Shown: in pieces, positions 17,952 through 49,674 of the stretch
Position numbering within the stretch: the stretch's first letter is position 1
Layout: each line of letters starts with the position of its first letter
Assembly (NCBI GenBank): GCA_000165345.1
Contig: CM000431.1
Location: 352,001 to 416,000 of the forward strand
Length of the DNA: 64,000 bases
Direction of reading: 5' to 3'
Notes under the pieces: generated by a model
Told to the model about the DNA's origin: nothing
The model's database searches: none
The model's input: the letters and a program-made list of their open reading frames with translations, nothing else
Position numbers and translations under genes: made by a program

Positions 17952-20090
17952 CTAAAAACTTAAAGAATTTTGAGTGGGGTCATCCAAATTGGTGCTTTCA
18001 CCCCCAGACTCTTTTTTAGAACTACTACTACTTACTATTTCAGTTTCATGATATATGTCTGAGTCAGCTTTTCTAGCAATATGTGCGTTATTTGTACAAA
18101 CCAAGTCACAGCTTAAGGCTTGAGATTCGTAATCTTTATCATCAAATCCACTTCTATCATCAAAACTACTATTATTATCATTTGTATTGTAGTTATTGTC
18201 TAGAAATGATGAAATTTCTTTCTCAGATTGGATTTCTGAGTGCTTATACTCTACAGTAACACCCTCATAATTTAAAGATGGAGGGCTTTCTTCTTCTAAA
18301 ACATGTTCAGGCTTTAATTCAGATTCAGAACCGGTGATAGCATCGGGTTGTTTGTTTTCCAACTGGGAAGAATGTTCGGTTGACTCAGCTTGTTTTTGCT
18401 GTGGTTGGATCTGTACATTGCCATGCTCTTTTCCATCCTCCAAATCGTGTTGATTTATTAAGCCAATCTCGAAGCTCAAAACTGAGTTAATTTGAGAGTA
18501 AAACTTCTCAGATAGTAAGTTTAGAATAAATGACGTGTTCTCTGAGAATATTTCACTATCGAAGGAGAATTTACATTCTTTGAGTTGTTCTACTTTTAAC
18601 TTGAGCTGTTGTCTTCTTTGCTTTCTGTTTAAAAGTACTTCATGTTTGCAAGCGTCCATTCTATTGATCTCATCCTGACGGCTCTTTCTAATCCTCTCAA
18701 TCTTTTCCATAAACTCTTTTTCCTGGTGTAATACGCTCGAGTAACTATCCTCAAGCTCCAAAACTTCTTGTTGAAGAACTTGAATTGTTTGTGAAATCAT
18801 AGAGGCTTCTTTAAAGTTTGCGTTTTTAATCTTGTCAGATTTTGAGGCTTGGGAAAGCCGGATCTGTTCTTCTAATAACTCCTTCTCCTCACCTTTGTAT
18901 CTCTTTATTTCCTGTATTTCTCGCAGTTTCTCTAAAACTACCTTTTCCTGTTTTTCAATCTTGGAAATTTCCTCTTGGATCAGTTTTAGTAAATCGCCTT
19001 CTCTAGAAATTTCCAACTTATATTCGCTCTGTTTCCTTTGTATAGGATATACAAAATTTTGTAAACATTCTTCAATCCAACAAATTATTATTGTCAAGCT
19101 TGAAAGCTCGTCTTTATAAACTTGTCTTGTACTTTTATATTCTTCAATTCTAATCCTTCTTTCGCTTTCTTCTTTTTTAATCCTCATTTCTTCAAGCATT
19201 ATTTCATTCTCAACATTAGAAAGTTCTTCCAATAACTTATTCTTTAGCCTGATTAGCTCTGAATATCTCTCTGAAATACTCATTGGCTCATTCTGTAAAT
19301 TATTCTCATCCTCCTCTCTATTTGTTGTCTTGTTAATCCCAACTTGCTCCAAATCACCGCCATAACCCTTAAGATCTTTGGTATTTTCTTCCAAATCTTG
19401 TTCTAACCTTTCTAATTTGCTTTGAATATTTAAACCAAAAGTCTCAAATTTACCTACCATCTTTGAAAACCATTTGGAAAGCTCCTCAATATCATGGCTT
19501 GTACCAAATACTCCCATACTTTCACTATTCAAATTTGAAACCAAATCCTTTAAAGAGACTGAATCCTCATCATATATCTGTTCATAGTCATATCTACTCT
19601 TTCTTAATACTGTCTTTACTTCACTACTTCTTTCATATGAAGCTTCTGATCCTGACCCAACTAGAAATGGGCAATTCGTAGTTGAATTTAGCTCAATTTG
19701 TGCATCAGTATCTTCCGTAGCCACTACTACTGTCTTCTCTATCATATCCTCCTTAAAACTCTTCTTTAATATTGAGCTCTTTCCATCATTTATCTCCCTA
19801 TTTCTATTATTCAATCCCATGGAGCCTAAGTTTTGCCTTAATGCCTCAACTTTGTTCTCATCTCTTGGTTCACTCTTCTTTTCTGCTTTCAAAGCTGATG
19901 TTCTTTTCGAAAATAATGAACTTAAATTCGACTCCTCTTGCCTTTGTTTTTCCATCCCCATTAATGAGGGTCTGGAAATTGATGTACATCCTATACCTAT
20001 ATTACTTTCTCCTATTTCCGGCCTTACTGCTTTTCTTGTCTTCTTTCTGATACCTGTGATACTAAAATTTTTATCTGAATTTAATTCCAT
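17952..20090 (-). CDS. Large coiled-coil protein, 712 aa, function unknown.
   Basis: Genuine ATG start. The central ~350 aa are heptad-like and E/K/L/Q-rich (LEEMRIKKEESERRIRIEEYKS...). The tails are Ser/Asn-rich. Confidence 0.6.
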   Translation of the reverse strand: MELNSDKNFSITGIRKKTRKAVRPEIGESNIGIGCTSISRPSLMGMEKQRQEESNLSSLFSKRTSALKAEKKSEPRDENKVEALRQNLGSMGLNNRNREINDGKSSILKKSFKEDMIEKTVVVATEDTDAQIELNSTTNCPFLVGSGSEASYERSSEVKTVLRKSRYDYEQIYDEDSVSLKDLVSNLNSESMGVFGTSHDIEELSKWFSKMVGKFETFGLNIQSKLERLEQDLEENTKDLKGYGGDLEQVGINKTTNREEDENNLQNEPMSISERYSELIRLKNKLLEELSNVENEIMLEEMRIKKEESERRIRIEEYKSTRQVYKDELSSLTIIICWIEECLQNFVYPIQRKQSEYKLEISREGDLLKLIQEEISKIEKQEKVVLEKLREIQEIKRYKGEEKELLEEQIRLSQASKSDKIKNANFKEASMISQTIQVLQQEVLELEDSYSSVLHQEKEFMEKIERIRKSRQDEINRMDACKHEVLLNRKQRRQQLKLKVEQLKECKFSFDSEIFSENTSFILNLLSEKFYSQINSVLSFEIGLINQHDLEDGKEHGNVQIQPQQKQAESTEHSSQLENKQPDAITGSESELKPEHVLEEESPPSLNYEGVTVEYKHSEIQSEKEISSFLDNNYNTNDNNSSFDDRSGFDDKDYESQALSCDLVCTNNAHIARKADSDIYHETEIVSSSSSKKESGGESTNLDDPTQNSLSF

Positions 20091-21118: not shown

Positions 21119-21883
21119 TTATGATGCTTCTGGAGCACCTTCAGCTTCTCCGGATGCGCCCAAGTCTGCAGTCCATAAAGTCAAGTTATCTCTCAAGAGC
21201 TGCATAATTAGAGTAGAATCTTTATAGCAATCTTCAGATAACTTGTCTAATTGTTCAATAGCCATTTCAAAAGCTTCCTTGGCCATATCTATAGCTGCTC
21301 TTGGTTCATTCAATATTTCATAATGGAATACTGAGAAGTTCAATGCTAAGCCAAGTCTAATTGGGTGAGTTGGTTCCAAATCCTTAGCAACAACTGTAGC
21401 ATCCTTGTAAGCTTTTAAGGCATCCTCAGCAGAGCTCTGCTTGGAGTCACCTGTGGAGAACTCGGAGATATATCTGTGATAATCTCCCTTCATCTTGAAA
21501 TAGAAAACTTTACTATCTGGACTTGTTGCTGTTGGAATTAAGTGCTTGTCAAGCATAGTCAAGATGTCATTGCAAATATCTGTAAGCTCAGCCTCAACTT
21601 TGCTTCTATACTTTCCACACATCTTGCTGGCATCCTCGGCATTTCTGCTGTGTTCTTTCTGCTCAACAGAAGAGATTATTCTCCATGAAGATCTTCTGGA
21701 TCCAACAGCATTCTTATAAGCAACGCTAAGTAAGTTTCTTTCTTCTACAGTAAGTTCTTCAGATTCTTGTCTTGCCTCAACAACATCCTTCATGTATTTG
21801 GCCATTTCATCATAACGTTCAGCCTGTTCAGCCAATTTGGCCATATAAACATTAGACTCTCTTGCATTTACTGAATCACTCAT
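21119..21883 (-). CDS. 14-3-3 protein.
   Basis: ATG at 21883. The protein carries 14-3-3 hallmark blocks: [40 protein letters not shown], and an acidic C-terminus. Confidence 0.9.
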
Positions 21884-23081: not shown

Positions 23082-23585
23082 TTATGCAGTTGGAACCTCA
23101 ATCTCACCTGCATCAATCATCTTTTGTAAATCAACTGGTTTTTGTCCATCTACAGTGCAACCAATTGCATTACATGTTCCGAGAATCTCCTTAACGGTAC
23201 CAGAAAATGCCTTAGCTCTTGACTTGAATTTCATTGCACGAGCAACAGAAATAACTTGGTTCATTGACAAGTTTCCGCTGTGCTTGATGTTCTTAACCTT
23301 CTTTCTGTCTCTAATTGGCTCCTTGAGCTCTTTAATCAACAAACATGTTGCAGTTGGGACAACATCAATCTTAGCCTGACGATTTTGAACAGTAAGCTTA
23401 ACACAAACCTTCATACCCTTCCAGGCAGCTGTACCCTTGGCAATATCATCACCAACTTTTTTTGGTGACATACCCAATGGACCGAGCTTTGGGGCTAAGA
23501 CAGATGTTGCTCCTACCTCACCTCCAAGTTGTCTGATGTACAAGTACTTGACTTCAGATGGATCTGCTTTACCTGCTGGTGGCAT
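23082..23585 (-). CDS. RPL12: 60S ribosomal protein L12 (uL11).
   Basis: ATG at 23585. [50 protein letters not shown] is near-identical in pattern to eukaryotic RPL12. Confidence 0.9.
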
Positions 23586-24192: not shown

Positions 24193-25113
24193 CTAGTCAT
24201 CAGAGTCCTCGTCAAAATTATTAATAAGTAGGAGAGTATTTGGATAGAATCCAATTTCACTTATAGTGATCTCTTTATCTGCATATGAATCGTCAATTTC
24301 CACTGACTTAGAGTGAGGGAGCCTTAAAGAAAATTTATCAGAAATTAAGTTGTTTTTGTCCAATGCAAGAGAATCAATCCATTTAAATATCTCATACACA
24401 GAGTCGTCTTTATGGAAATTTCTTTGAAACTTTTTCCCTGCTGAGTTTTTCACACAAACTCTAGAGAGACTTTCTTGTTCGATATCTCTATCTTGTTGAA
24501 ATTCAGCTTGTAATTTTTCTCTTCTTTCTCTAATCAAGTCCTTAGTTCTTTTTTTCTCTAATGCCTTTTCTTGTTTCATAGAATCCAAATTTAAAGATCT
24601 CATATACTCAAGATCTTGTTCTTCTCTAATTCTTCTAGCTTCCTCAATCTGAACTTGTTCAATTTGAGAAATAACTGATCTATTGAAATTTCTTATAGAT
24701 ACATTATCTTGAGCTCTATTATTTAGATTTGGAACACAAAATAAAGTTTTAAAGAATCCAAAGATTGCACTTAGACTTGTTCCACAGACTGACAAAAACA
24801 TCTTAAAACATTTTTTAAGCTTCAAAGTGTTTAAGTGTTTTCCTTCATTAGTCTGATCAATATTTGTTTCCTGTTGCTCATTCAAATTTTCATATTGATT
24901 TACTGTTATATTATTAGTATTAACTTGTTCAGTAATATTAAAATTATTACCTTCATAAACATTTGCATTTTGTTGCTCATAATAAAGAGATATTGCATTC
25001 TCTAAATCCCAGTTCGTTGATTCTAAAATTGTTCTACCTGTTGTAATATCACAGGTTGTGATCTCACAGAAAGCTTGTAGCAATTCAGTTTGGCCTTCTG
25101 AAATTTCTGTCAT
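24193..25113 (-). CDS. UBA-like/UBX domain protein (FAF/UBXD8-like p97 adaptor).
   Basis: ATG at 25113. The N-terminus is UBA-like (LLQAFCEITTCDITTGRTILESTNWDLENAISLY), followed by a coiled-coil middle. The C-terminal beta-grasp/UBX-like region is FQRNFHKDDSVYEIFKWIDSL...FSLRLPHS. Confidence 0.6.
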   Translation of the reverse strand: MTEISEGQTELLQAFCEITTCDITTGRTILESTNWDLENAISLYYEQQNANVYEGNNFNITEQVNTNNITVNQYENLNEQQETNIDQTNEGKHLNTLKLKKCFKMFLSVCGTSLSAIFGFFKTLFCVPNLNNRAQDNVSIRNFNRSVISQIEQVQIEEARRIREEQDLEYMRSLNLDSMKQEKALEKKRTKDLIRERREKLQAEFQQDRDIEQESLSRVCVKNSAGKKFQRNFHKDDSVYEIFKWIDSLALDKNNLISDKFSLRLPHSKSVEIDDSYADKEITISEIGFYPNTLLLINNFDEDSDD

Positions 25114-25548: not shown

Positions 25549-26148
25549 TTACAAGTCAGGAATTAGCTTCTCTTGACTAATATAGGCATCATACACATGT
25601 TTTGTTGTAATGACTCTTTTATTTGAGCCACTGTCATTTAATTGTTTATTAATTTTTGCCATAAGCTCCAAAATAAAGAGCTTGGTAGCAGAAGAAATTG
25701 CCAAGGTAATTTCCTCTATATTCTCTGGAATATATTTACTTTTCTGATGAAGCATTGACTGTATATAGCTCAAACTATCTTCAATAGGCTCTCCATTTTC
25801 CACCCCCTCATTCAAATCCAAATACCCAGAACTCACTAAATAACTAAGAATTATTGATTTTTTAAAACCTGAATTTCTACAATTTTGAATTGTGGAATCC
25901 ACCTTTTCTATTCCAGTTACATTACTCCCCTCCCCAGCCTTATATGATATGTAATCTAAGACTAAGTCAACCATTTCATTGCTTAAAATCCCACTATCCT
26001 CGTTTTCTACTACTCTACTACTTGTGGTGTTCATACTGTAATCTTTGACTGCTCCAGAGTATTCCATCTCCTCATCCATATTGAAAACATCCTCATTTGA
26101 TGTTTGAGAAGATCCAGGAGATAATTCATCAAACCCGTCCCCCACCAT
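25549..26148 (-). CDS. Histone-fold protein of the H2A-like NF-YC / NC2-alpha / POLE4 / CHRAC1 class, with a ~130-aa acidic N-terminal extension.
   Basis: The track M at 26160 is a TTG; the first ATG is at 26148. The C-terminal IEEITLAISSATKLFILELMAKINKQ...NKRVITTKHVYDAYISQEKL matches the LF(I/V)(L/E)EL ...KR.T....D fold signature of this family. Confidence 0.5.
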   Translation of the reverse strand: MVGDGFDELSPGSSQTSNEDVFNMDEEMEYSGAVKDYSMNTTSSRVVENEDSGILSNEMVDLVLDYISYKAGEGSNVTGIEKVDSTIQNCRNSGFKKSIILSYLVSSGYLDLNEGVENGEPIEDSLSYIQSMLHQKSKYIPENIEEITLAISSATKLFILELMAKINKQLNDSGSNKRVITTKHVYDAYISQEKLIPDL

Positions 26149-26343
26149 TCTTTTTACCAAAAATTTTTATAAACTTAGTCACTTAACAGCTAATTCTTCA
26201 AAAATGATAACTTCCTTTTAATAAGTTCTTGTAAAATCTGCTATATTTAATTATGCAACTTTTCTGCAATTGAAATTTGAACAGCTCAATTTTATTAATA
26301 TTCAAACTGAAGGCAATAATAATAATAAAATATATTGACATTA

Positions 26344-27039: not shown

Positions 27040-28584
27040 ATGAGAAATTCCCATTTTCTAGGGTTTCTCTTATTACTCCTATTAGTGCTTTCAAAGCAAG
27101 GAGAGGCATTAAAGGTAAAGAGCTTTTTTTTCGGCTTGGGAGGTGGAGATAAGAAAGAAGAGAAGAATGAAAATAAGCAAGAACAGGGGCCCAAATCAAC
27201 ACAAGATACTAACGGAATAAACCCAGCTGCAGGAGTATCCAAATCAGAAGGGAATCCACCTGAAAATTCTTCCAAGCCACCAGAAGAGGCTAAAAAACCC
27301 GAAGGAAGTCATCCTGAGGAAAAACCACCAGTAGAGGCTAAAAAGGCTGAGGGAGGCCATTCTGAAGAAAAGCCACCAGAAAATCACCCTCCTGCAGAGG
27401 GGGGAGAACCAAAACAAGACAATTTACCATTTATTCCTAGTCCACCACCACCACCTCCTTCAATAGCTCCAGAACATGAGCCAGAGCACCCCCCTTCTTC
27501 TTCCCCTCCTCCTCCTCCTCCTCCTCCTCCTCCTCCTCCATCAGGATGTAGCTGTGGCAACGAGAAGCCTCTTTCTGATTGTTGTCATGAAACCGTTTAT
27601 GGTGAGAAGAAAACAGGAGAAAAAAGAAATGCTACAATTACTGGAACAATTACTGGAACAATTACAGATTCAGTATTAACAGCAAAAACAGGAGATGAAA
27701 TAACTGTTAAGCATAATTCTGATAAGCCAACTCCTGAATGTGAACGTTCTAATAAGCAATCTGTTACTACAGTAACTCATGAAGCTCATACAAATCTTCA
27801 TTCTGTACAAAGTGGAAAATTACCTTCTCTTGAAGCATCCCCAAATGTTGGTAAAAGTAAGTTTCCCAATGGAGCCAACTTTATTCCTCTTGTATTGGAT
27901 GCCAATACGGGCCAATATGGAGTTGAACTCAAGACCATGGATTTGCTTGTTACAGGCCAGGATGAAAAAATTAAACCTTTCGATATGTTAATTCCATTCG
28001 TCAATGAAAGCGGTCAAATTAAATTTGTAACTAGAAGGAGATTAAGGCAATTAGTCAAATCTGGTCTTTCAAAAGGTTTCTTAGAAGGTGTTCCTCCATT
28101 TACTCAAGAAGCTATGGTTGAAGGTGCAGCTGAACCAAAAGAAAATAATGAAGAAAAAAATAATGAAGAAAAGAAGAGTGAAGAAAAAAATGATGAAAAG
28201 AAGCCAGAAGAAGAAAAGAGCTCAGAATCATCTGCTGCAGAAAAAGGTAAAGAAGCTGCAAACAGTGCAAAAAGCCTACTGCAAGAGGCTGAAACTGTTC
28301 TTACTGGAGGATCTCTATTTGAACCCTCTGAAAAGAAGGAAGATGATAATAAAAAGGAAGAAAAGGATGACAAGAAAGATGACGATAATAAAAAGGATGA
28401 TGAAAAGGCTGAGGAAGGTGAATCTAGCTCAGAGAAAAAAGACTCCAGCGAGTCAGAAGAAACCTCTGAATCGTCAGGTAGTGAAACATCAAAATCTTCA
28501 AAATCGGATGATGTTGATAGTGCAATGGGAGCACAAGATTCTGCGAGTGTACATGCATCAGAAGAGGAAGAGGAAGAGGAGTGA
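27040..28584 (+). CDS. Secreted low-complexity glycoprotein-like protein. It has a signal peptide, Pro-rich repeats, polyproline, a Cys cluster, a Thr-rich repeat, and a K/E/D/S-rich tail ending in poly-Glu.
   Basis: ATG at 27040. MRNSHFLGFLLLLLLVLSKQGEA is a signal-peptide-like N-terminus. Repeats are KKPEGSHPEEKPP / KKAEGGHSEEKPP. A run of about 14 Pro is encoded by (CCT)n. The Cys cluster is SGCSCGNEKPLSDCCHETVY. TITGTITGTITDS carries potential O-glycosylation sites. Confidence 0.65.
   Translation: MRNSHFLGFLLLLLLVLSKQGEALKVKSFFFGLGGGDKKEEKNENKQEQGPKSTQDTNGINPAAGVSKSEGNPPENSSKPPEEAKKPEGSHPEEKPPVEAKKAEGGHSEEKPPENHPPAEGGEPKQDNLPFIPSPPPPPPSIAPEHEPEHPPSSSPPPPPPPPPPPPSGCSCGNEKPLSDCCHETVYGEKKTGEKRNATITGTITGTITDSVLTAKTGDEITVKHNSDKPTPECERSNKQSVTTVTHEAHTNLHSVQSGKLPSLEASPNVGKSKFPNGANFIPLVLDANTGQYGVELKTMDLLVTGQDEKIKPFDMLIPFVNESGQIKFVTRRRLRQLVKSGLSKGFLEGVPPFTQEAMVEGAAEPKENNEEKNNEEKKSEEKNDEKKPEEEKSSESSAAEKGKEAANSAKSLLQEAETVLTGGSLFEPSEKKEDDNKKEEKDDKKDDDNKKDDEKAEEGESSSEKKDSSESEETSESSGSETSKSSKSDDVDSAMGAQDSASVHASEEEEEEE
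27505..27540. repeat. (CCT)~12 trinucleotide microsatellite encoding polyproline.
   Basis: Seen in the sequence. Confidence 0.9.
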
Positions 28585-31755: not shown

Positions 31756-34700
31756 ATGAATAGGGAAGAGAATCCTTCAGGCGGATCCAGTGAGGTTTCA
31801 CAAGAAAACCCTGAAAATCATGAAGGGATTCAAAATGGTGAAAATATTTCTGAAGACTGGAATCCAGTTGAGGGGGATATAAGAGCTACAGTCTCCAATG
31901 ATCGTCATCAAGCTCAAAATAACAATTTGGATACTGGAATTCATACCTCGAATAGTTTAAGTTCCGAAAACTATGTAGTTGTTGGTTCTTCAGAAAATGA
32001 GATGAGCGAAGAAAAGAGGTTCAAAATTGTAGTTAGACCTTTAAATGGGAGGGATTTAACAGTTGAAGCTTCTCAAACCTCAACAATTCGCCAGCTAAAA
32101 GTTCTGATAGAGGTACAGAGCGGGATTGAAGCTATAAACCAACGTCTAATTTTTCGAGGAAGATGTATGCTTGATGATGATACTGTTGGTACATATATTA
32201 AAGAGGATGGAGTAATAATACATTTGGTTCCATATGCAAGAAATCAGAGAAATGAAGGCTCAGCTCAACCTGCTTCTGAATCCAGATCAAGAGCTTCGGG
32301 AACTGGAGGAAATGCTGCTAACATCCACAACCTTTTTGCTGCAACATCTGGAATACCAGGTTTGAACACATCAATAGGAGGATTTCCTGGTGCAATGATG
32401 TTTGGAGCAATTAGATTAGATGGTGAAACAGGTCTTCCCTTGGAAGCTGAAGATTTGATGCAAAGAGTGTTGAGAACTTTTGGAGATGCAGTAAACGGTA
32501 ATGGGATAGATCAAAATCTGATGAATATTTCCACAGGAACTGGAGATAACAGAAACTTGGGCTCAGTAACGTTTGATTCATTCGCTGTTGGCCAACCAAC
32601 AACAATACCTGGCTTCTCAGGACTTATTTCTAGTACAGAAAGAAGCAATCAGGAGTCTTTATCCTCCAACACTGATGCAAACAGAACCACAACATCCGCA
32701 TCAACTGGTGCTACCGCCAATAATTCTGCAAACTCATCCGCTACTGTTACAGGAACTGAAGGTAGGAGAAGCTCAAATACTAATGGTGCCAATATGAACC
32801 GTTCTGGAAGCAATACGGACTCTAGGTTAAACAACAACTCAGCACAAGCTCAAGGAAATTTCAGAGGTGGGAACGGAGAAGGTATTAGAGGTGATCCGAT
32901 GAATAGCAACCCAATTGGGAGGATTGGGACAATTGTTTCCAGAATTTTCCAGGCCTTTAATCAACCAGTAGGAGAAGGAATCCAGGAAGGAGAAACCAGG
33001 TCTGAAGGCAGAGTTAGTCAGGCTGGAATCGGAAATGGAACTGGGTTGGAAACTGGGGCTAGGGCTGATGTGGGTTCTGGCGCTAACCAGACTGTAGCTT
33101 CTGATAGAACTTCAGGAAACACTACTTCCCAGGATGTCAGGGGGAGAGTTATTTCAAGTCCAGCCTCTGGTCTGAGCTGGACCCAGATTGCATCTTCTGG
33201 GGCTCTGAATACCGGTAGAACAGGTGTACTGCCAATAGGACGTCCAGGTTTAGCAGTTGCAACGATTCCAATCTCTAATTTTTCAATTCCAATTACAATT
33301 AGAGCTACTTCTTCTACGGGGATCCCCTCAATCAATCTTTCTCAGAGCTCAAATACAGTAGCCAGCGTAGCTGCACCCGCCCAGGGGGAGTCAGCCTCTG
33401 CAAGAGCTCCAACAGATACTGGTAGCACTCCATCATCTAATACAAATGTGTCTGAGGCCTATAGAACTTCTTCAAACAATTTCTTTAGGAATATCTCAAA
33501 TGTCCTAGAAGAATCAGCAAATCAGCTACGAACAGTTGCTGCTGGAATCAGAGAAATGAGTGGATTAGAAGGTCCAAGTAGAACTGAACAGAATAGGGAG
33601 GGCTCATCCTCTTCGTCCTCTCTACCTCCAATCCCCTCTAGTGTGAGTAGCAGAAGCATTTCGGGTGAAAATTTGGCTTTGAGTGGCCAGACTTCTGACT
33701 ACATTCAGCACCATTCGCATAGACTTTATATATCTAATGAAGTGGTTCATAGGTTCCTTCCTTGGGACTCTCTTAACGAACTGATGGATATATTGGAGAG
33801 AGATTGTGGATGGAGAAGACCCAGAATTACAATTCCTCCCCCTGTGGATTCTATTGATGCTAGCCCATTGGCAATCTTTATTTCAGTATACCTCCAGGCT
33901 ATGTCAATAGTTCAGTCCAATTTAATGCAAATACAAGCATGGCAAGAGAGGTTTGCCAGATTAGATATCCCAAGACTATGCTATACAGTACATTTACTTG
34001 CGCTTATTTCACATATTTCGGCTCATATTGGCTCACTTTTAGCCTGGCTATTCCAAAATATGGCGCAACATGTCGAACAGGACAGACTTATTGAAGGACT
34101 ACAGTGGAATAGGTCTAGTAATGAAATTGAGAATCCTATAGATATAGTAGAAAAAAGACAAGATACTTCAGAAGAAACTAAAGGAATGGATGTAGATGAA
34201 GAGACTCCATGTGAATTGATTGGAGAAGATATCTTAAATAATGCTAATTTGAATCAAGATAACCAGGATATCAAAGATAATACAGGAAATGTAGCGAAAA
34301 TGTTTGAAAGAGATAGTTCTAGCTTTGGTTTTAATAATGCAAATACAAACTCATCCTCCAATGTGGGCTATGATCAAAACAACGAAGAAATAATAAATAA
34401 GCTTCCTGATGAAATTAGGGAAAAATGGGAAAGATGGACTGGTAATCCACAAAACTTCTCCAGAAATGTTTTTGCCTCATTCTCCACCAGACCCTTCAGT
34501 GATACATACCAACAAGGTGATGTGTTCTCCAGCAGCTCGAGTTTTGGATTCTCCCAACCCTCCAATGAGAATGGAAACACATCAGGTAGTAGAATTAATA
34601 GTCATCCTAGCTCCCAAGAACTTTTGAGAATGATTATTCACCAAACAGAAGCTAATTTGAATATTAGCAGCTCCTCGAATTCTCGTAATTATACTAATAT

Positions 34701-34827
34701 TCAGGCTGAATACCGTTCAATGCTAATCAGAGACCTAATAAATATTGCAAGGAATGACTCTGACTTTCTTAATAATCGAAGCAGATTTCCGTACCTACAA
34801 AGAATTATTTCCCTTTTATATGAGTAA
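31756..34827 (+). CDS. Ubiquitin-like (UBL) domain protein with a long Ser/Thr/Asn/Gly-rich linker and a conserved-looking C-terminal domain (BAG6/Scythe-like, tentative).
   Basis: ATG at 31756. The UBL domain is FKIVVRPLNGRDLTVEASQTSTIRQLKVLIEVQSGIEAINQRLIFRGRCMLDDDTVGTYIKEDGVIIHLV. The rest is low-complexity, then a structured C-terminal ~350 aa. Confidence 0.6.
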   Translation: MNREENPSGGSSEVSQENPENHEGIQNGENISEDWNPVEGDIRATVSNDRHQAQNNNLDTGIHTSNSLSSENYVVVGSSENEMSEEKRFKIVVRPLNGRDLTVEASQTSTIRQLKVLIEVQSGIEAINQRLIFRGRCMLDDDTVGTYIKEDGVIIHLVPYARNQRNEGSAQPASESRSRASGTGGNAANIHNLFAATSGIPGLNTSIGGFPGAMMFGAIRLDGETGLPLEAEDLMQRVLRTFGDAVNGNGIDQNLMNISTGTGDNRNLGSVTFDSFAVGQPTTIPGFSGLISSTERSNQESLSSNTDANRTTTSASTGATANNSANSSATVTGTEGRRSSNTNGANMNRSGSNTDSRLNNNSAQAQGNFRGGNGEGIRGDPMNSNPIGRIGTIVSRIFQAFNQPVGEGIQEGETRSEGRVSQAGIGNGTGLETGARADVGSGANQTVASDRTSGNTTSQDVRGRVISSPASGLSWTQIASSGALNTGRTGVLPIGRPGLAVATIPISNFSIPITIRATSSTGIPSINLSQSSNTVASVAAPAQGESASARAPTDTGSTPSSNTNVSEAYRTSSNNFFRNISNVLEESANQLRTVAAGIREMSGLEGPSRTEQNREGSSSSSSLPPIPSSVSSRSISGENLALSGQTSDYIQHHSHRLYISNEVVHRFLPWDSLNELMDILERDCGWRRPRITIPPPVDSIDASPLAIFISVYLQAMSIVQSNLMQIQAWQERFARLDIPRLCYTVHLLALISHISAHIGSLLAWLFQNMAQHVEQDRLIEGLQWNRSSNEIENPIDIVEKRQDTSEETKGMDVDEETPCELIGEDILNNANLNQDNQDIKDNTGNVAKMFERDSSSFGFNNANTNSSSNVGYDQNNEEIINKLPDEIREKWERWTGNPQNFSRNVFASFSTRPFSDTYQQGDVFSSSSSFGFSQPSNENGNTSGSRINSHPSSQELLRMIIHQTEANLNISSSSNSRNYTNIQAEYRSMLIRDLINIARNDSDFLNNRSRFPYLQRIISLLYE

Positions 34828-45690: not shown

Positions 45691-48600
45691 ATGAGTAACT
45701 ATAAACAAACTGAACTAAAAAGAAACAAGGGCGATTCAAGAGATGTTTCACTACTTTCTGCTTCAAGCTTGCATGAAGGCCAATCAAACATGCAAATGTG
45801 GAGGAGAAGGTGGGAGCCATGCCTACCACACATACTAAGATCCCCGTTATCTATTAAGGAAGTTTCAGCTTTTGAAGGAATGGGGAAAATGGAAAGATCT
45901 GACGTTTCTGCCTATTTTCCTTTAACATCTGGAAACAGTTTGGTGAAGTTTGAGGCCATTTCAGATGGAAGTAGCTCATGGAAGAAGTTTCCCGCCAGAA
46001 GAATCGGAGTAGTATTATCGGGAGGTCAGGCCTCAGGAGGTCATAATGTGATTGCTGGATTAATGTCTTATATTAAACTTTGTAACCAAAGTAGTCAGCT
46101 TTTTGGATTTTTAGGAGGCCCAGAAGGAGTATATAGTGGGAGATACAGAGAGTTAACTGAAGATGATATTAACGGTATACTTAACCAGGGAGGGTTTAAT
46201 ATTATTTGTTCAGGCCGTCACAAAATTGAAACAGAAGAACAAATGAGAGCTTCCTTGGAGATTTGTGAAAAACTCAAATTACATGGCCTAGTAGTAATAG
46301 GAGGAGATGATTCTAATACAAATGCAGCAGTTCTAGCAGAATACTTCAAACGTAACTCGTCTAGTACAGTAGTTGTAGGATGTCCCAAGACCATAGATGG
46401 AGATTTGAAAAACGAGGTAATTGAGACATCTTTTGGTTATGATACAGCAGTGAAAACTTATAGTGAACAGATTGGAAGTATTATGGATGCAATTAAAACT
46501 GAGGGATACGGATACTATTTTGTAAGGTTGATGGGAAGATCTGCATCTCACATTACTTTAGAATGCGGTCTTCAGACTAGAGCGAATATGATCTTGATTG
46601 GAGAAGAAATTAAGGAAGAGAACAGATCTTTGATGTCGATAGTAGACGAAATTGTAGAAATGATTCTAAAAAGAGATTCACTGGGAAAGAAACATGGAAT
46701 TGTATTATTACCCGAAGGGTTAATAGAGTTTATTCCAGAATTTGAGACTTTAATCAAAGAATTAAATCTTATTTTGCTTAAAACTAACGATAGAAAACAG
46801 ATTATAGATAGCTTAAGTCAAGAAATGAAGACTCTTTTCTTGGAGCTTCCTTCAGATGTACAAAATCAGCTCCTTTTAGAAAGGGATCCACATGGTAACG
46901 TTCAAGTAGCAAAGATAGCAACAGAAGAGTTGTTAGTACACATGGCAAAAGAAAAACTTGAGAGGGTAAAGAAGGATTATATTTTAGACAATGTTAAGAC
47001 TCACTACTTTGGATATGAAGGAAGATGCGCTTTACCTTCAAATTTTGATGCAAGTTATTGCTTTGCTCTTGGACATACTGCAGCAGCTCTTATAGACAAT
47101 CAGCGTTCAGGATATATGGCAGTAGTCAGGAAGCTAAGCTTAACTCCTGAACAATGGGAACCAGCAGGATGTCCTCTTACATATATGATGAATATTGAGC
47201 TTAGAAAAGGGAAGTCTGTTCCCGTTATTAAGAAGTACTTAGTAGATCTTAAAGGACAATCTTACTTAGCTTATTGTCAAGTTAGATCTGAGTGGAAGTT
47301 GAATGATTATTACAGAAATCCAGGACCAATACAATTTGATGGTCCTAATTCCGGAGTAACTAATTATATGATTTCTCCTCCAAGAGTGGAGGATTTACTT
47401 AGAATGGAGGATAGATGCGAGAATAAAATGAGTCATAAATTATCAGGGTCAGAAAGCTCTCAAAATAGATCAAAGGACGACATGAAGATACAGAAGATCC
47501 TTCTTTCAACAGCTTCCAAGTTTAACGATGATCTAATCATTTCCTCCTCATGCAGAGATTTAGATGCTTACATTATTACTAAATGTTTACCTCATCAGAC
47601 TGGGAGACACAACAGCAAAATACTACAATTAAAAGAGGAGGAATACTCATCAGGATTCACAGAGATAAGAGAGAACAGCCAGTCAAAATCTTCCATGGGT
47701 AATTCACTAGCTTGTGAGTCACTTGGATTAATTCTATCATGCCTTTCAACTCCTGGTACTCAGAATGTAATTTGTGGACTAGTCAATGGACTACCATCGC
47801 TTAAACAGCTTATAGTTTTTAAGTCTCTCTCAGACTTTTCAGAAGGAAAAGCTCTAAAAGTCGATCTTACTTCCGAAGGATCATTGGCTTTCTTTGAGAA
47901 TTCTCTCAATTCTGGAGGCTGTATATTCCCAAATGGAGTAGAAATAAAAATGAATGTCTCAGAAAAAAAGAGCTCAAATACAACTTTAAAAGCTAATGAT
48001 AACCAAGAATTCACAAACAGCTCTTGCGTTCTTTCATGCAAAGGGCTAGTTAGTAATGACTTCCTCTCTCAACTCTTGTCATTTTTTAATATGCGTGCAA
48101 TTGCAATTGTGGGGAACAGTGAGGCGGCAACGTTTGGCGCCTCTATATCGGAGCAATTAATTTGCATGTCGTTAAATGGCATGAAGAGTGAGATCCCAGT
48201 AGTGTTTGTTCCAGTTTGCTTGGAAAACAGTATTTCTCATCAAATGATTGAGACATGTATTGGATTTGACTCTGTAACTAAGAGTATTTCAACTTTGGTT
48301 GGAAATCTGTTAACAGATTCAGCTTCAGCAACAAAGTATTGGTATTTCATGAAGATGATAGGCGATAAGACTTCAAATGTTGCTTTAGAGGTTGGAATAC
48401 AAACTCATCCAAATTTGGTTGTAATTCCAGAAAGATATGCAGATGGAAAACTTTCAGTTTATGGTTCAGAAATGGCTGGGGTCACTTTAGATGATATTAT
48501 TACTGAAATTTGTGATATAATTTGTTTGAGATCTAATCAGGGAAATAATTTTGGCGGGCTCCTGGTATCAGAAGGTCTTTTTGACCAGGTATACCCAACA

Positions 48601-49674
48601 AGAGAGTATAGGAAGATATTTTCAAGGTTTAGCACTCAGAATTTATGTAATGCTTCAAATTCAGGATGCGAGATTCTGGGTTCTGAAAGTTTAAGTAGAT
48701 ATGAGAAAAAAGTTGTTGAGGATTTCAAACTTATATTTAGTGATATAGATACGAGACTTATTGAGAATTTGATTAATTCAAGAAAGATATGTGATGTTAG
48801 GACTGAGATTATACTCTCAGCTCTGGTTCAAAAGGAACTCAAATTTAGAAGGTCTAAGAATAAAATTAAGAATGGGATGAACCCAGTGTGCTTTAGTTTT
48901 ACAGATCAAGTCAGAGCTTGTATCCCTTCTGATTTTGACTCTACACTTGGATTAATGTACGGAATGCTTGCATCAAAAATAATTAATAGTAACTTGGTTG
49001 GGGGATATGTTACGGGGATTAAGGGGGTATTGAGCCAGACAGATAGTTGGAATATGTATGCTATTCCTATTTCCTCTTTAATGACTTTAAATATTGAAGG
49101 AGATAAAATACAGGATTCAAGAAACAACTCAAATCTTTCATTTGAATCAAAGAAACTTCTAACCGAATCTACACTAGGAAATGCTGGCCATCAACTTGAA
49201 TTCATATGCAAACTGAATTCCGTTAATTTGCGCAATAACCCTTCATTTAAACTTTTAATGAACCACATTGAAAAATGGGAAGTCGATAATACTTATGCTA
49301 ATCCAGGCCCTATTCAATACTTTAATCTATTCAAAAATTTATTCAACAGAACACTATTTGAAAGTGAATACGTTTATACGCGAAACCTAAAAGAAATGGA
49401 TCAAATATTACTTGAAATTAAGACATTATGCCAATTAGGTGTTGAAAAGGATATTTTAAACTCTACTATACAACACTTAAAGGCAATTCAAAATTCTATT
49501 TCAATAATGAGCAGCTGTAACCACAGAAAATCTAAACCAGAACAAATAGAATGCATACAGAAAACAAACTCAATAGCAAACTACACATCAAACTTAAAAT
49601 GCAAAAGCAATAATAATGAAACCAATCTGGAAATGATTGTTAACAATATTATTAATCAGGAAACTTGCAATTAA
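45691..49674 (+). CDS. Pyrophosphate-dependent phosphofructokinase (PPi-PFK), a long two-domain form with a catalytic N-terminal half and a degenerate C-terminal PFK-like half.
   Basis: ATG at 45691. The N-terminal half has GGDDS (VVIGGDDSNTNAAVL; Asp at the Gly position is typical of PPi-dependent enzymes), PKTIDGD (GCPKTIDGDLKN) and MGR (LMGRSASH). In the C-terminal half the same positions read VGNSEA, PVCLENS and MIGDKT, so the catalytic signatures are lost. Confidence 0.9.
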   Translation: MSNYKQTELKRNKGDSRDVSLLSASSLHEGQSNMQMWRRRWEPCLPHILRSPLSIKEVSAFEGMGKMERSDVSAYFPLTSGNSLVKFEAISDGSSSWKKFPARRIGVVLSGGQASGGHNVIAGLMSYIKLCNQSSQLFGFLGGPEGVYSGRYRELTEDDINGILNQGGFNIICSGRHKIETEEQMRASLEICEKLKLHGLVVIGGDDSNTNAAVLAEYFKRNSSSTVVVGCPKTIDGDLKNEVIETSFGYDTAVKTYSEQIGSIMDAIKTEGYGYYFVRLMGRSASHITLECGLQTRANMILIGEEIKEENRSLMSIVDEIVEMILKRDSLGKKHGIVLLPEGLIEFIPEFETLIKELNLILLKTNDRKQIIDSLSQEMKTLFLELPSDVQNQLLLERDPHGNVQVAKIATEELLVHMAKEKLERVKKDYILDNVKTHYFGYEGRCALPSNFDASYCFALGHTAAALIDNQRSGYMAVVRKLSLTPEQWEPAGCPLTYMMNIELRKGKSVPVIKKYLVDLKGQSYLAYCQVRSEWKLNDYYRNPGPIQFDGPNSGVTNYMISPPRVEDLLRMEDRCENKMSHKLSGSESSQNRSKDDMKIQKILLSTASKFNDDLIISSSCRDLDAYIITKCLPHQTGRHNSKILQLKEEEYSSGFTEIRENSQSKSSMGNSLACESLGLILSCLSTPGTQNVICGLVNGLPSLKQLIVFKSLSDFSEGKALKVDLTSEGSLAFFENSLNSGGCIFPNGVEIKMNVSEKKSSNTTLKANDNQEFTNSSCVLSCKGLVSNDFLSQLLSFFNMRAIAIVGNSEAATFGASISEQLICMSLNGMKSEIPVVFVPVCLENSISHQMIETCIGFDSVTKSISTLVGNLLTDSASATKYWYFMKMIGDKTSNVALEVGIQTHPNLVVIPERYADGKLSVYGSEMAGVTLDDIITEICDIICLRSNQGNNFGGLLVSEGLFDQVYPTREYRKIFSRFSTQNLCNASNSGCEILGSESLSRYEKKVVEDFKLIFSDIDTRLIENLINSRKICDVRTEIILSALVQKELKFRRSKNKIKNGMNPVCFSFTDQVRACIPSDFDSTLGLMYGMLASKIINSNLVGGYVTGIKGVLSQTDSWNMYAIPISSLMTLNIEGDKIQDSRNNSNLSFESKKLLTESTLGNAGHQLEFICKLNSVNLRNNPSFKLLMNHIEKWEVDNTYANPGPIQYFNLFKNLFNRTLFESEYVYTRNLKEMDQILLEIKTLCQLGVEKDILNSTIQHLKAIQNSISIMSSCNHRKSKPEQIECIQKTNSIANYTSNLKCKSNNNETNLEMIVNNIINQETCN

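Follow-up and report, generated by a model that had tools for sequence, protein, structure and literature searches.

We analyzed a 64,000-nucleotide stretch of DNA (GenBank assembly GCA_000165345.1, contig CM000431.1, positions 352,001 to 416,000 of the forward strand; hereafter "the window") that is collinear with Cryptosporidium parvum chromosome 3, at least from cgd3_1290 through cgd3_1300 to cgd3_1400. The window is about 30% GC, and its genes are tightly spaced with few introns. Our subject is the gene at 27040-28584, which a preliminary description made from the sequence had read as encoding a secreted, repeat-rich, probably heavily O-glycosylated protein, a surface or secreted antigen. 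An ATG at 27040 opens one unbroken open reading frame (ORF) of 514 codons that ends in a TGA at 28582-28584, with in-frame stop codons upstream of the start. This ORF is a genuine gene, beyond chance, because it is 514 codons long in DNA of ~34% GC, lies in a gene order kept across the genus, and shows a ratio of non-synonymous to synonymous substitution rates (dN/dS) of 0.38 against C. tyzzeri. The preliminary description overlooked the gene's best-conserved non-repetitive core (residues 275-345) and a helix motif (residues 410-428). Because this core is conserved and non-repetitive, the protein is more than a low-complexity antigen, and we propose that it may be a soluble secretory-pathway protein found only in Cryptosporidium.

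Flanking genes of known identity place the gene on the chromosome. A 14-3-3 gene at 21119-21883 (minus strand) matches PDB entry 2npm (E=9e-155), and together with its position this match identifies it as Cp14-epsilon, cgd3_1290. The ORF at 23082-23585 (minus strand) encodes ribosomal protein L12 (RPL12), which is cgd3_1300 in a published table, and phosphofructokinase (PPi-PFK1, cgd3_1400) lies at 45691-49674 (plus strand), with an upstream gap of 454 nt compared to the 455 nt tabulated for PFK1. Between cgd3_1300 and cgd3_1400 there are nine ID slots and nine ORFs to occupy them, so the gene at 27040-28584 is, by position, probably cgd3_1330. The ID may be offset by one, because a JCI antigen array biased toward signal-peptide and transmembrane proteins carries cgd3_1340 and, in the part of its tables available, no further cgd3_13xx ID. 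In that part of the source, cgd3_1340 is a non-highlighted ("grey40") point, and the ID may denote either our gene or its NMD3 neighbor. The main texts of the literature searched do not mention cgd3_1320, cgd3_1330, cgd3_1340 or cgd3_1350, and of the nearby genes the DG8 supplement lists only cgd3_1300 and cgd3_1250.

The gene has the following features, given by window position:

27040-28584, plus strand: complete single-exon coding sequence (CDS) of 514 codons plus stop, based on the ORF list, the translation, and orthologues with matching N- and C-termini.
27040-27108, plus strand: predicted signal peptide, residues 1-23 (MRNSHFLGFLLLLLLVLSKQGEA), a heuristic call; the sole hydrophobic segment, conserved in orthologues.
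27109-27147, plus strand: conserved motif LKVKSFFFGLGGG directly after the signal peptide, residues 24-36; K25, F29, F31 and G34 are invariant in 8/8 species.
27277-27381, plus strand: K/E/P-rich tandem repeat with a 48-nt (16-residue) period, 2.2 copies (Tandem Repeats Finder (TRF) score 140, 80% matches).
27442-27459, plus strand: first proline run (P6, residues 135-140), with mixed CCA/CCT codons, inside the conserved LPFIPSPPPPPP element; P135, P137 and P139 are invariant.
27505-27540, plus strand: (CCT)11 + CCA microsatellite encoding P12, residues 156-167 (TRF, 11.7 copies, 100% match).
27547-27585, plus strand: cysteine cluster CSC...CC (C170, C172, C181, C182); the CC pair is invariant, and the gastric species C. 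muris and C. serpentis lack CSC.
27634-27672, plus strand: TITGTITGTITDS block, residues 199-211, with a 12-nt unit repeated 2.7 times (TRF and alignment).
27862-28074, plus strand: conserved core, residues 275-345, with 49 of 71 positions invariant across the genus in two alignments.
28033-28059, plus strand: basic stretch RRRLRQLVK, residues 332-340; columns R332-K340 are invariant, and a helix spans 332-340 in both structure models.
28139-28217, plus strand: short K/E-rich tandem repeats with 15-nt and 27-nt periods (TRF), residues ~367-393; the fastest-evolving part of the gene.
28267-28323, plus strand: conserved motif AKSLLQEAETVLTGGSLFE in the acidic tail, residues 410-428, with 15 invariant positions and no non-synonymous change compared to C. 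tyzzeri.
28561-28581, plus strand: C-terminal E7 encoded by (GAAGAG)3.3; all orthologues keep an acidic C-terminus.

The protein's N-terminus reads MRNSH-FLGFLLLLLLVL-SKQGEA followed by LK. Its n-region is charged, its hydrophobic core is 12 residues long, and positions -3 and -1 hold small residues (G21 and A23); by the -3/-1 rule, cleavage would fall after A23. A signal-peptide-like N-terminus is kept in 8/8 orthologues aligned, and the annotation of the C. canis orthologue reads "putative signal peptide-containing protein". Outside this segment, the highest 19-residue Kyte-Doolittle mean is 0.61, and the hydropathy profile and the EEEEEEE terminus reveal neither a transmembrane helix nor a C-terminal glycosylphosphatidylinositol (GPI)-addition signal. 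The preliminary description's signal peptide is thus borne out by heuristic features, and its secreted protein has the look of a secretory-pathway product, which we take as likely. The predicted mature protein would comprise 491 residues (52.9 kDa, pI 4.82, net charge about -36), one third of them charged, with E, K, S and P as the commonest residues and three NxS/T sequons in the protein as a whole.

We considered whether the product might instead be an unsecreted, intracellular low-complexity protein whose N-terminus is a signal anchor or stems from a mis-called start. Two observations lend this some weight: the signal-peptide call is a heuristic one, and the annotated C. muris and C. serpentis proteins begin 13-16 residues upstream with a basic extension. 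The in-frame stops upstream of ATG 27040 argue the other way, as do the conserved layout of MRN, hydrophobic stretch and LKVKSFFF, and an L6 core with G/A at -3/-1 that makes a textbook cleavable signal. We therefore regard an unsecreted protein as very improbable.

A protein search identified seven related proteins of 474-539 residues, all from Cryptosporidium and all aligning end to end. The C. tyzzeri orthologue is 91-95% identical to the window protein (96.8% nucleotide identity over the CDS), the C. canis orthologue ~60-68%, the orthologues in two read-set assemblies ~60-70%, and those of C. ryanae, C. serpentis and C. muris (CMU_042960) ~40%. The nucleotide identity to C. tyzzeri marks the source of the window as C. 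parvum or a very near relative. One of the read-set orthologues, ~60-70% identical to the window protein, lies on a 13-kb Logan contig (SRR31860986), in which GC content and the use of CCG/CCC codons are above those of C. parvum. The gene order 14-3-3, RPL12, UBX, ~199-residue ORF, studied gene, NMD3, and a ubiquitin-like protein of 1,022-1,045 residues is shared by the window, C. tyzzeri, C. muris and C. canis, and the Logan contig shows the same order over the span it covers. On this basis the genes are orthologous by position in both the intestinal and the gastric lineages.

An exhaustive search of 1.84 billion representative proteins with a profile hidden Markov model (HMM) of residues 168-352 returned only three Cryptosporidium clusters. 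This search replaced a word-index search with the 185-residue core, which missed even the 98%-identical C. tyzzeri protein and whose null result we did not trust. Pfam and PDB sequence profiles gave no match to the protein, a protein-pattern scan of JGI metagenomes gave no match, and neither did an exact-DNA metagenome scan for the sequence flanking the CCT tract. Judged by these comparisons, the family is restricted to the genus Cryptosporidium and has no paralogue, and the lineage specificity proposed in the preliminary description holds at the genus level. The gene evolves faster than its neighbors (dN/dS against C. tyzzeri 0.38, compared to 0-0.18), and its substitution pattern indicates that it remains under purifying selection. 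Within the gene, dN against C. tyzzeri falls to 0.005 in the core and to 0 in the helix motif, compared to 0.145 (dS 0.293) in the K/E repeats of residues 353-405.

The core lies within a non-repetitive stretch (residues 212-350) and has the consensus FPNGAxFxPLVLDAxxGQYGxExKxxDxL...EKxKPxDMLIPFxxExGxIxFVTRRRLRQLVKxGLSK, ending in FVTRRRLRQLVKSGLSK. The second element, at residues 410-428, has the consensus AKSLLQEAExxLTGGSLFE. Further invariant clusters are the signal peptide with K25/F29/F31/G34, the LPFIP-PPP element, the CC pair, and the acidic C-terminus. By eye, the core could be divided into two strand-strand-helix halves, but an internal duplication was unsupported when Smith-Waterman scores were compared to those of shuffled sequences (p = 0.06-0.33).

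AlphaFold2 modeling of the full-length protein from the 8-sequence alignment gave a mean predicted local distance difference test score (pLDDT) of 41, with 421 of the 514 residues below 50 and none above ~67; the core modeled alone reached a mean of 46. Both models place strands at residues ~284-286, 293-295, 317-321 and 327-331 and helices at 297-304 and 332-340, a weak prediction, and the full-length model adds a helix at 397-422 (pLDDT ~62). On these models, about 80% of the protein is called disordered. A Foldseek search against the PDB gave no match at E<=0.001, a null that carries no weight because it is expected for a low-confidence model.

Two of the conserved elements resemble known protease or export motifs. 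In MEDLE2 and MVP1, export depends on a hydrophobic-Ser-hydrophobic-hydrophobic motif soon after the signal peptide (VSLI, with L35 essential, in MEDLE2; LSFV, with F39 essential, in MVP1), and LKVKSFFFGLGGG partly resembles it: in V26-K27-S28-F29-F30-F31, a serine is followed by hydrophobic residues, but a lysine precedes the serine, and S28 is alanine in C. ryanae. In the core, the invariant RRLRQ (residues 333-337, 8/8 species) fits both the PEXEL (RxLxE/Q/D) and the TEXEL (RRLxx) patterns, and its RRLR fits a minimal RxxR site. RRLRQ may be a functional PEXEL/TEXEL-type motif, a sequence match alone being weak evidence.

These resemblances raise the possibility of a proteolytically matured effector, cut by an aspartyl protease at KSFFF and/or after the RRL of RRLRQ and then exported, by way of small or dense granules, to the parasite-host interface or the host cell. 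Published work shows that MEDLE2 and MVP1 need a signal peptide plus a downstream motif for export, and that export of MEDLE2 also requires disorder. In our protein, which is mostly predicted to be disordered, S28-F29-F30-F31 would lie 5-8 residues past the predicted cleavage site, with F29 and F31 invariant in 8/8 species, and RRLRQ is likewise invariant. The lysine before the serine and the alanine of C. ryanae fit this idea poorly, and the RRL site lies ~310 residues past the signal peptide, in a predicted helix inside the best-folded part of the protein; Toxoplasma tolerates TEXEL sites distant from the N-terminus (PMC8687662). Moreover, known exported Cryptosporidium effectors show polymorphism, and most MVP and SKSR genes are telomere-proximal, whereas this gene is chromosome-internal, syntenic, and under purifying selection genus-wide. 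The profile search showed no sequence similarity to other families, and by a rough estimate roughly 10% of such N-termini would be expected to carry motifs this short by chance alone. Overall, we consider maturation into an exported effector doubtful.

The gene's repeats contrast with its conserved elements. All tandem arrays of the 64-kb window with a TRF score of at least 80 fall within this gene, in line with the repeat-rich character first assigned to it. Residues ~37-134 form a K/E/P/G-rich stretch containing a tandem repeat whose copies read KPPEEAKKPEGSHPEE, KPPVEAKKAEGGHSEE and KPPENHPPAEGGEPKQ; its period is 16 residues, where the preliminary description had 13. The additional copy of this repeat is confined to the C. 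parvum/C. tyzzeri lineage and corresponds to a 20-column alignment gap in the other species. The Thr/Ile/Gly block ATITGTITGTITDS and the cysteine cluster were correctly noted; the array underlying the former spans 27634-27665 (TRF), and C234 is the fifth and last cysteine of the protein. At the protein level, the TITGTITGTITDS block is conserved in intestinal species and C. ryanae, and C. muris and C. serpentis have a degenerate version. The tail (residues 351-514) is rich in K, E, D and S, carries the 15-nt and 27-nt repeats, and terminates in E7. Its composition and its end are as first described, but it is not uniform, since the genus-invariant motif at residues 410-428 interrupts it.

The proline tract at 27505-27540, first reported as P14, spans 36 nt and therefore encodes P12. 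It contains the only perfect trinucleotide repeat of at least 7 units in the window, and with 11 perfectly matching units it has the length and regularity of a microsatellite. C. tyzzeri has (CCT)7 + CCA in place of the (CCT)11 + CCA found here, and the resulting 12-nt gap (27505-27516) is the sole insertion or deletion between the two CDSs. Because this sole indel comprises exactly four CCT units, it bears the signature of replication slippage. The long pure tract is specific to this lineage: C. canis and the read-set species have an interrupted P/S-rich stretch with mixed codons, and C. muris has only IPPPSP.

The length polymorphism claimed for this tract thus stands between species, with 11 units here and 7 in C. 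tyzzeri. As a typing marker, the tract is a reasonable but unproven candidate, its known length difference being one between species. We found no published typing scheme based on this locus in the literature searched. The DZ-HRGP "hydroxyproline-rich glycoprotein" marker is a different gene, located on chromosome 6 at ~917.6-918.1 kb. DZ-HRGP, likewise a Cryptosporidium gene, is named for a (hydroxy)proline-rich product, and its length or sequence polymorphism serves multilocus sequence typing. The (CCT)n tract could supply a length marker on chromosome 3. Trinucleotide tracts tend to stutter.

Composition bears directly on the proposal of a mucin-like surface or secreted antigen of invasive stages, heavily modified with O-linked N-acetylgalactosamine (O-GalNAc) in the manner of gp40/15, gp900 and CpMuc. 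The signal peptide, the repeats and the low complexity suit such a protein, as do the three NxS/T sequons, and some O-glycans are possible on the TITGTITGTIT block, on the two SSS triplets, or in the Ser-rich tail, where residues 462-491 (30 residues) are 53% Ser+Thr. Overall, however, Ser and Thr make up 16% of the protein, the densest 60-residue window, in the acidic tail, reaches 33%, the longest Ser run is three, Thr runs are absent, and Ser and Thr nowhere form dense arrays. The abstract of PMC5549699 describes the established O-GalNAc proteins of C. parvum as carrying domains rich in Ser and Thr. The composition here is dominated by E, K, S and P, the best-conserved parts are non-repetitive, and the literature searched mentions neither cgd3_1330 nor cgd3_1340 in its main text. 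With no membrane-spanning segment, and with EEEEEEE where a GPI anchor would need a hydrophobic C-terminus, the protein also lacks the means of attachment of a surface antigen. We conclude that a heavily O-glycosylated mucin is quite unlikely, that the mucin label should be dropped, and that a surface location is unlikely as well.

The same acidic composition raises the possibility of a luminal matrix or structural protein, either a granin- or calsequestrin-like acidic, cation-binding protein by which secretory-organelle contents would be condensed or a component of an oocyst or vacuolar wall matrix with an extensin-like character (Pro-rich, with Cys elements). A pI of 4.8, the net charge of about -36, the acidic Ser-rich tail and the conserved poly-Glu C-terminus are consistent with this, as are a multibasic RRR site, the small Cys cluster, and a Pro/Ser-rich segment that every species has in one form or another. 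Genus-wide conservation would also suit a housekeeping function in the biogenesis of organelles or of the wall. Oocyst wall proteins carry Cys-rich repeats, whereas this protein has only 5 cysteines, and Pfam, PDB and profile searches revealed no homology to granins, calsequestrin, COWPs or extensins. The SxE and S/TxxD/E motifs of secretory kinases are not enriched in the tail compared to shuffled sequences, and the long polyproline is confined to the C. parvum lineage and is therefore not the conserved function. Taken together, a matrix or wall role seems rather unlikely.

Several other genes of the window deserve mention. The ~199-residue ORF at 25549-26160 (minus strand), which encodes a further genus-conserved protein, is transcribed divergently from the studied gene, and the two have a common 879-bp intergenic region; it has no Pfam match, and its position is conserved in C. 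tyzzeri, C. canis, C. muris and the Logan assembly. The gene at 24193-25113 (minus strand) encodes a UBA/UBX-domain protein of 306 residues in which a hydrophobic stretch (FKMFLSVCGTSLSAIFGFFKTLF) separates the UBA domain from the UBX domain; this suggests a membrane-inserted adaptor of endoplasmic-reticulum-associated degradation similar to UBXD8/Ubx2. At 31756-34827 (plus strand) lies a gene for a 1,023-residue protein with one N-terminal ubiquitin-like domain (residues 91-158) followed by a low-complexity region of ~500 residues rich in S, N, G and T. This layout resembles that of BAG6/Scythe; the gene adjoins NMD3 in every species examined and coincides with a local GC content of 43%, compared to a background of ~30%. 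The gene at 17952-20090 (minus strand) encodes a 712-residue E/S/K/L-rich protein, apparently coiled-coil and without a Pfam match, and sits in the stretch of the window with the most strongly negative GC and AT skew. We found no tRNA genes in the 64-kb window.

Overall, our analysis favors a soluble secretory-pathway protein found only in Cryptosporidium, in which the conserved elements are functional and the repeats are fast-evolving spacers; we put the probability of this reading at roughly one half. A cleavable N-terminal signal peptide would direct the protein into the endoplasmic reticulum (ER) and, since neither a transmembrane segment nor a GPI signal nor an ER-retention tail would hold it there, it would travel onward as luminal cargo. 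It would most likely be stored in dense granules, small granules or micronemes, from which it would be discharged into the vacuole or at the interface between parasite and host. Its function would probably reside in three short genus-invariant elements, namely KxKSFFFGLGGG, the 71-residue core ending in FVTRRRLRQLVKSGLSK, and the AKSLLQEAE..LTGGSLFE helix, which could bind a conserved parasite partner or serve as sorting or processing sites. We favor a parasite partner over a host-specific one because conservation spans gastric and intestinal species, including reptile- and rodent-infecting ones with different hosts. The Pro-rich, K/E-rich and acidic Ser-rich stretches would act as flexible spacers, evolving quickly through replication slippage, as seen in the CCT units, the duplicated 48-nt unit and the K/E repeats of 15 nt.

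Several points weigh against a soluble secretory protein of this kind. The signal-peptide call is heuristic, and the 16-residue basic extension annotated at the N-terminus in C. muris and C. serpentis would allow a signal anchor in those species. The main texts of the literature searched contain no localization, expression or proteomic evidence for cgd3_1330 or cgd3_1340, and the gene is missing from a 2025 review's table of characterized secreted proteins. The organelle assignment and the partner binding are pure inference on our part. Low AlphaFold confidence from an alignment of eight sequences is no proof that the core is disordered.

If the favored reading is correct and the protein belongs to a conserved secretory or interface machinery, it would offer a genus-wide and relatively invariant target, unlike the main subjects of current work, polymorphic mucins and telomeric effector families. 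A more specific version is that the three elements define a Cryptosporidium-wide secretory family without outside relatives, matured by aspartyl-protease cleavage at Ser-Phe-Phe and/or RRL and acting as a non-polymorphic core component of the interface or of organelle biogenesis. We regard this version as speculative and rather unlikely; if true, the family would provide a conserved target, unlike polymorphic antigens. The invariant motifs lend themselves to simple point mutations (F29A, L335A).

Secreted, disordered, repeat-bearing orphan proteins are familiar in Apicomplexa. Orthologues of this one are already annotated publicly as uncharacterized or signal peptide-containing, and we found no study naming the gene in the literature searched. 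What our analysis adds is the genus-invariant core without relatives elsewhere and a clean, slippage-prone CCT tract. Its main gain is to remove the mucin label and bring the conserved core to attention.

Among characterized Cryptosporidium proteins, the granule cargo proteins DG1-DG8, SG4 and CP2 share with this protein a signal peptide, the lack of recognizable domains, and a mostly "uncharacterized" annotation. Secretion takes these cargo proteins to the vacuole membrane or the host-parasite interface. Our gene is not among the 2025 validated markers and shows no similarity to other families. MEDLE2 (cgd5_4590) and MVP1 (cgd6_40) combine a signal peptide with a nearby short, conserved Ser-then-hydrophobic motif, and MEDLE2 is intrinsically disordered. 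The partly similar motif here is KSFF, however, and not hydrophobic-Ser-hydrophobic-hydrophobic, and there is no homology to either family, the profile search having returned three orthologue clusters. Moreover, our gene is single-copy, chromosome-internal and syntenic genus-wide, whereas MEDLE proteins are highly polymorphic and MVP genes lie mostly near telomeres. With the TEXEL substrates of Toxoplasma and the PEXEL substrates of Plasmodium, which are processed by ASP5 and plasmepsin V, respectively, this apparently secretory and largely disordered protein would share its invariant RRLRQ; here the motif lies in a predicted core helix, and the export motifs so far defined in Cryptosporidium belong to another type. 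Finally, gp40/15 (cgd6_1080), gp900 (cgd7_4020) and CpMuc resemble our gene in being secretory and repeat-containing, with trinucleotide length variation. The length-variable trinucleotide repeat of gp60 is a TCA/TCG serine tract. In contrast to these mucin-like glycoproteins, the repeat studied here codes for Pro and not Ser/Thr, in a protein of 16% Ser+Thr that has neither their dense arrays nor a GPI or transmembrane anchor.

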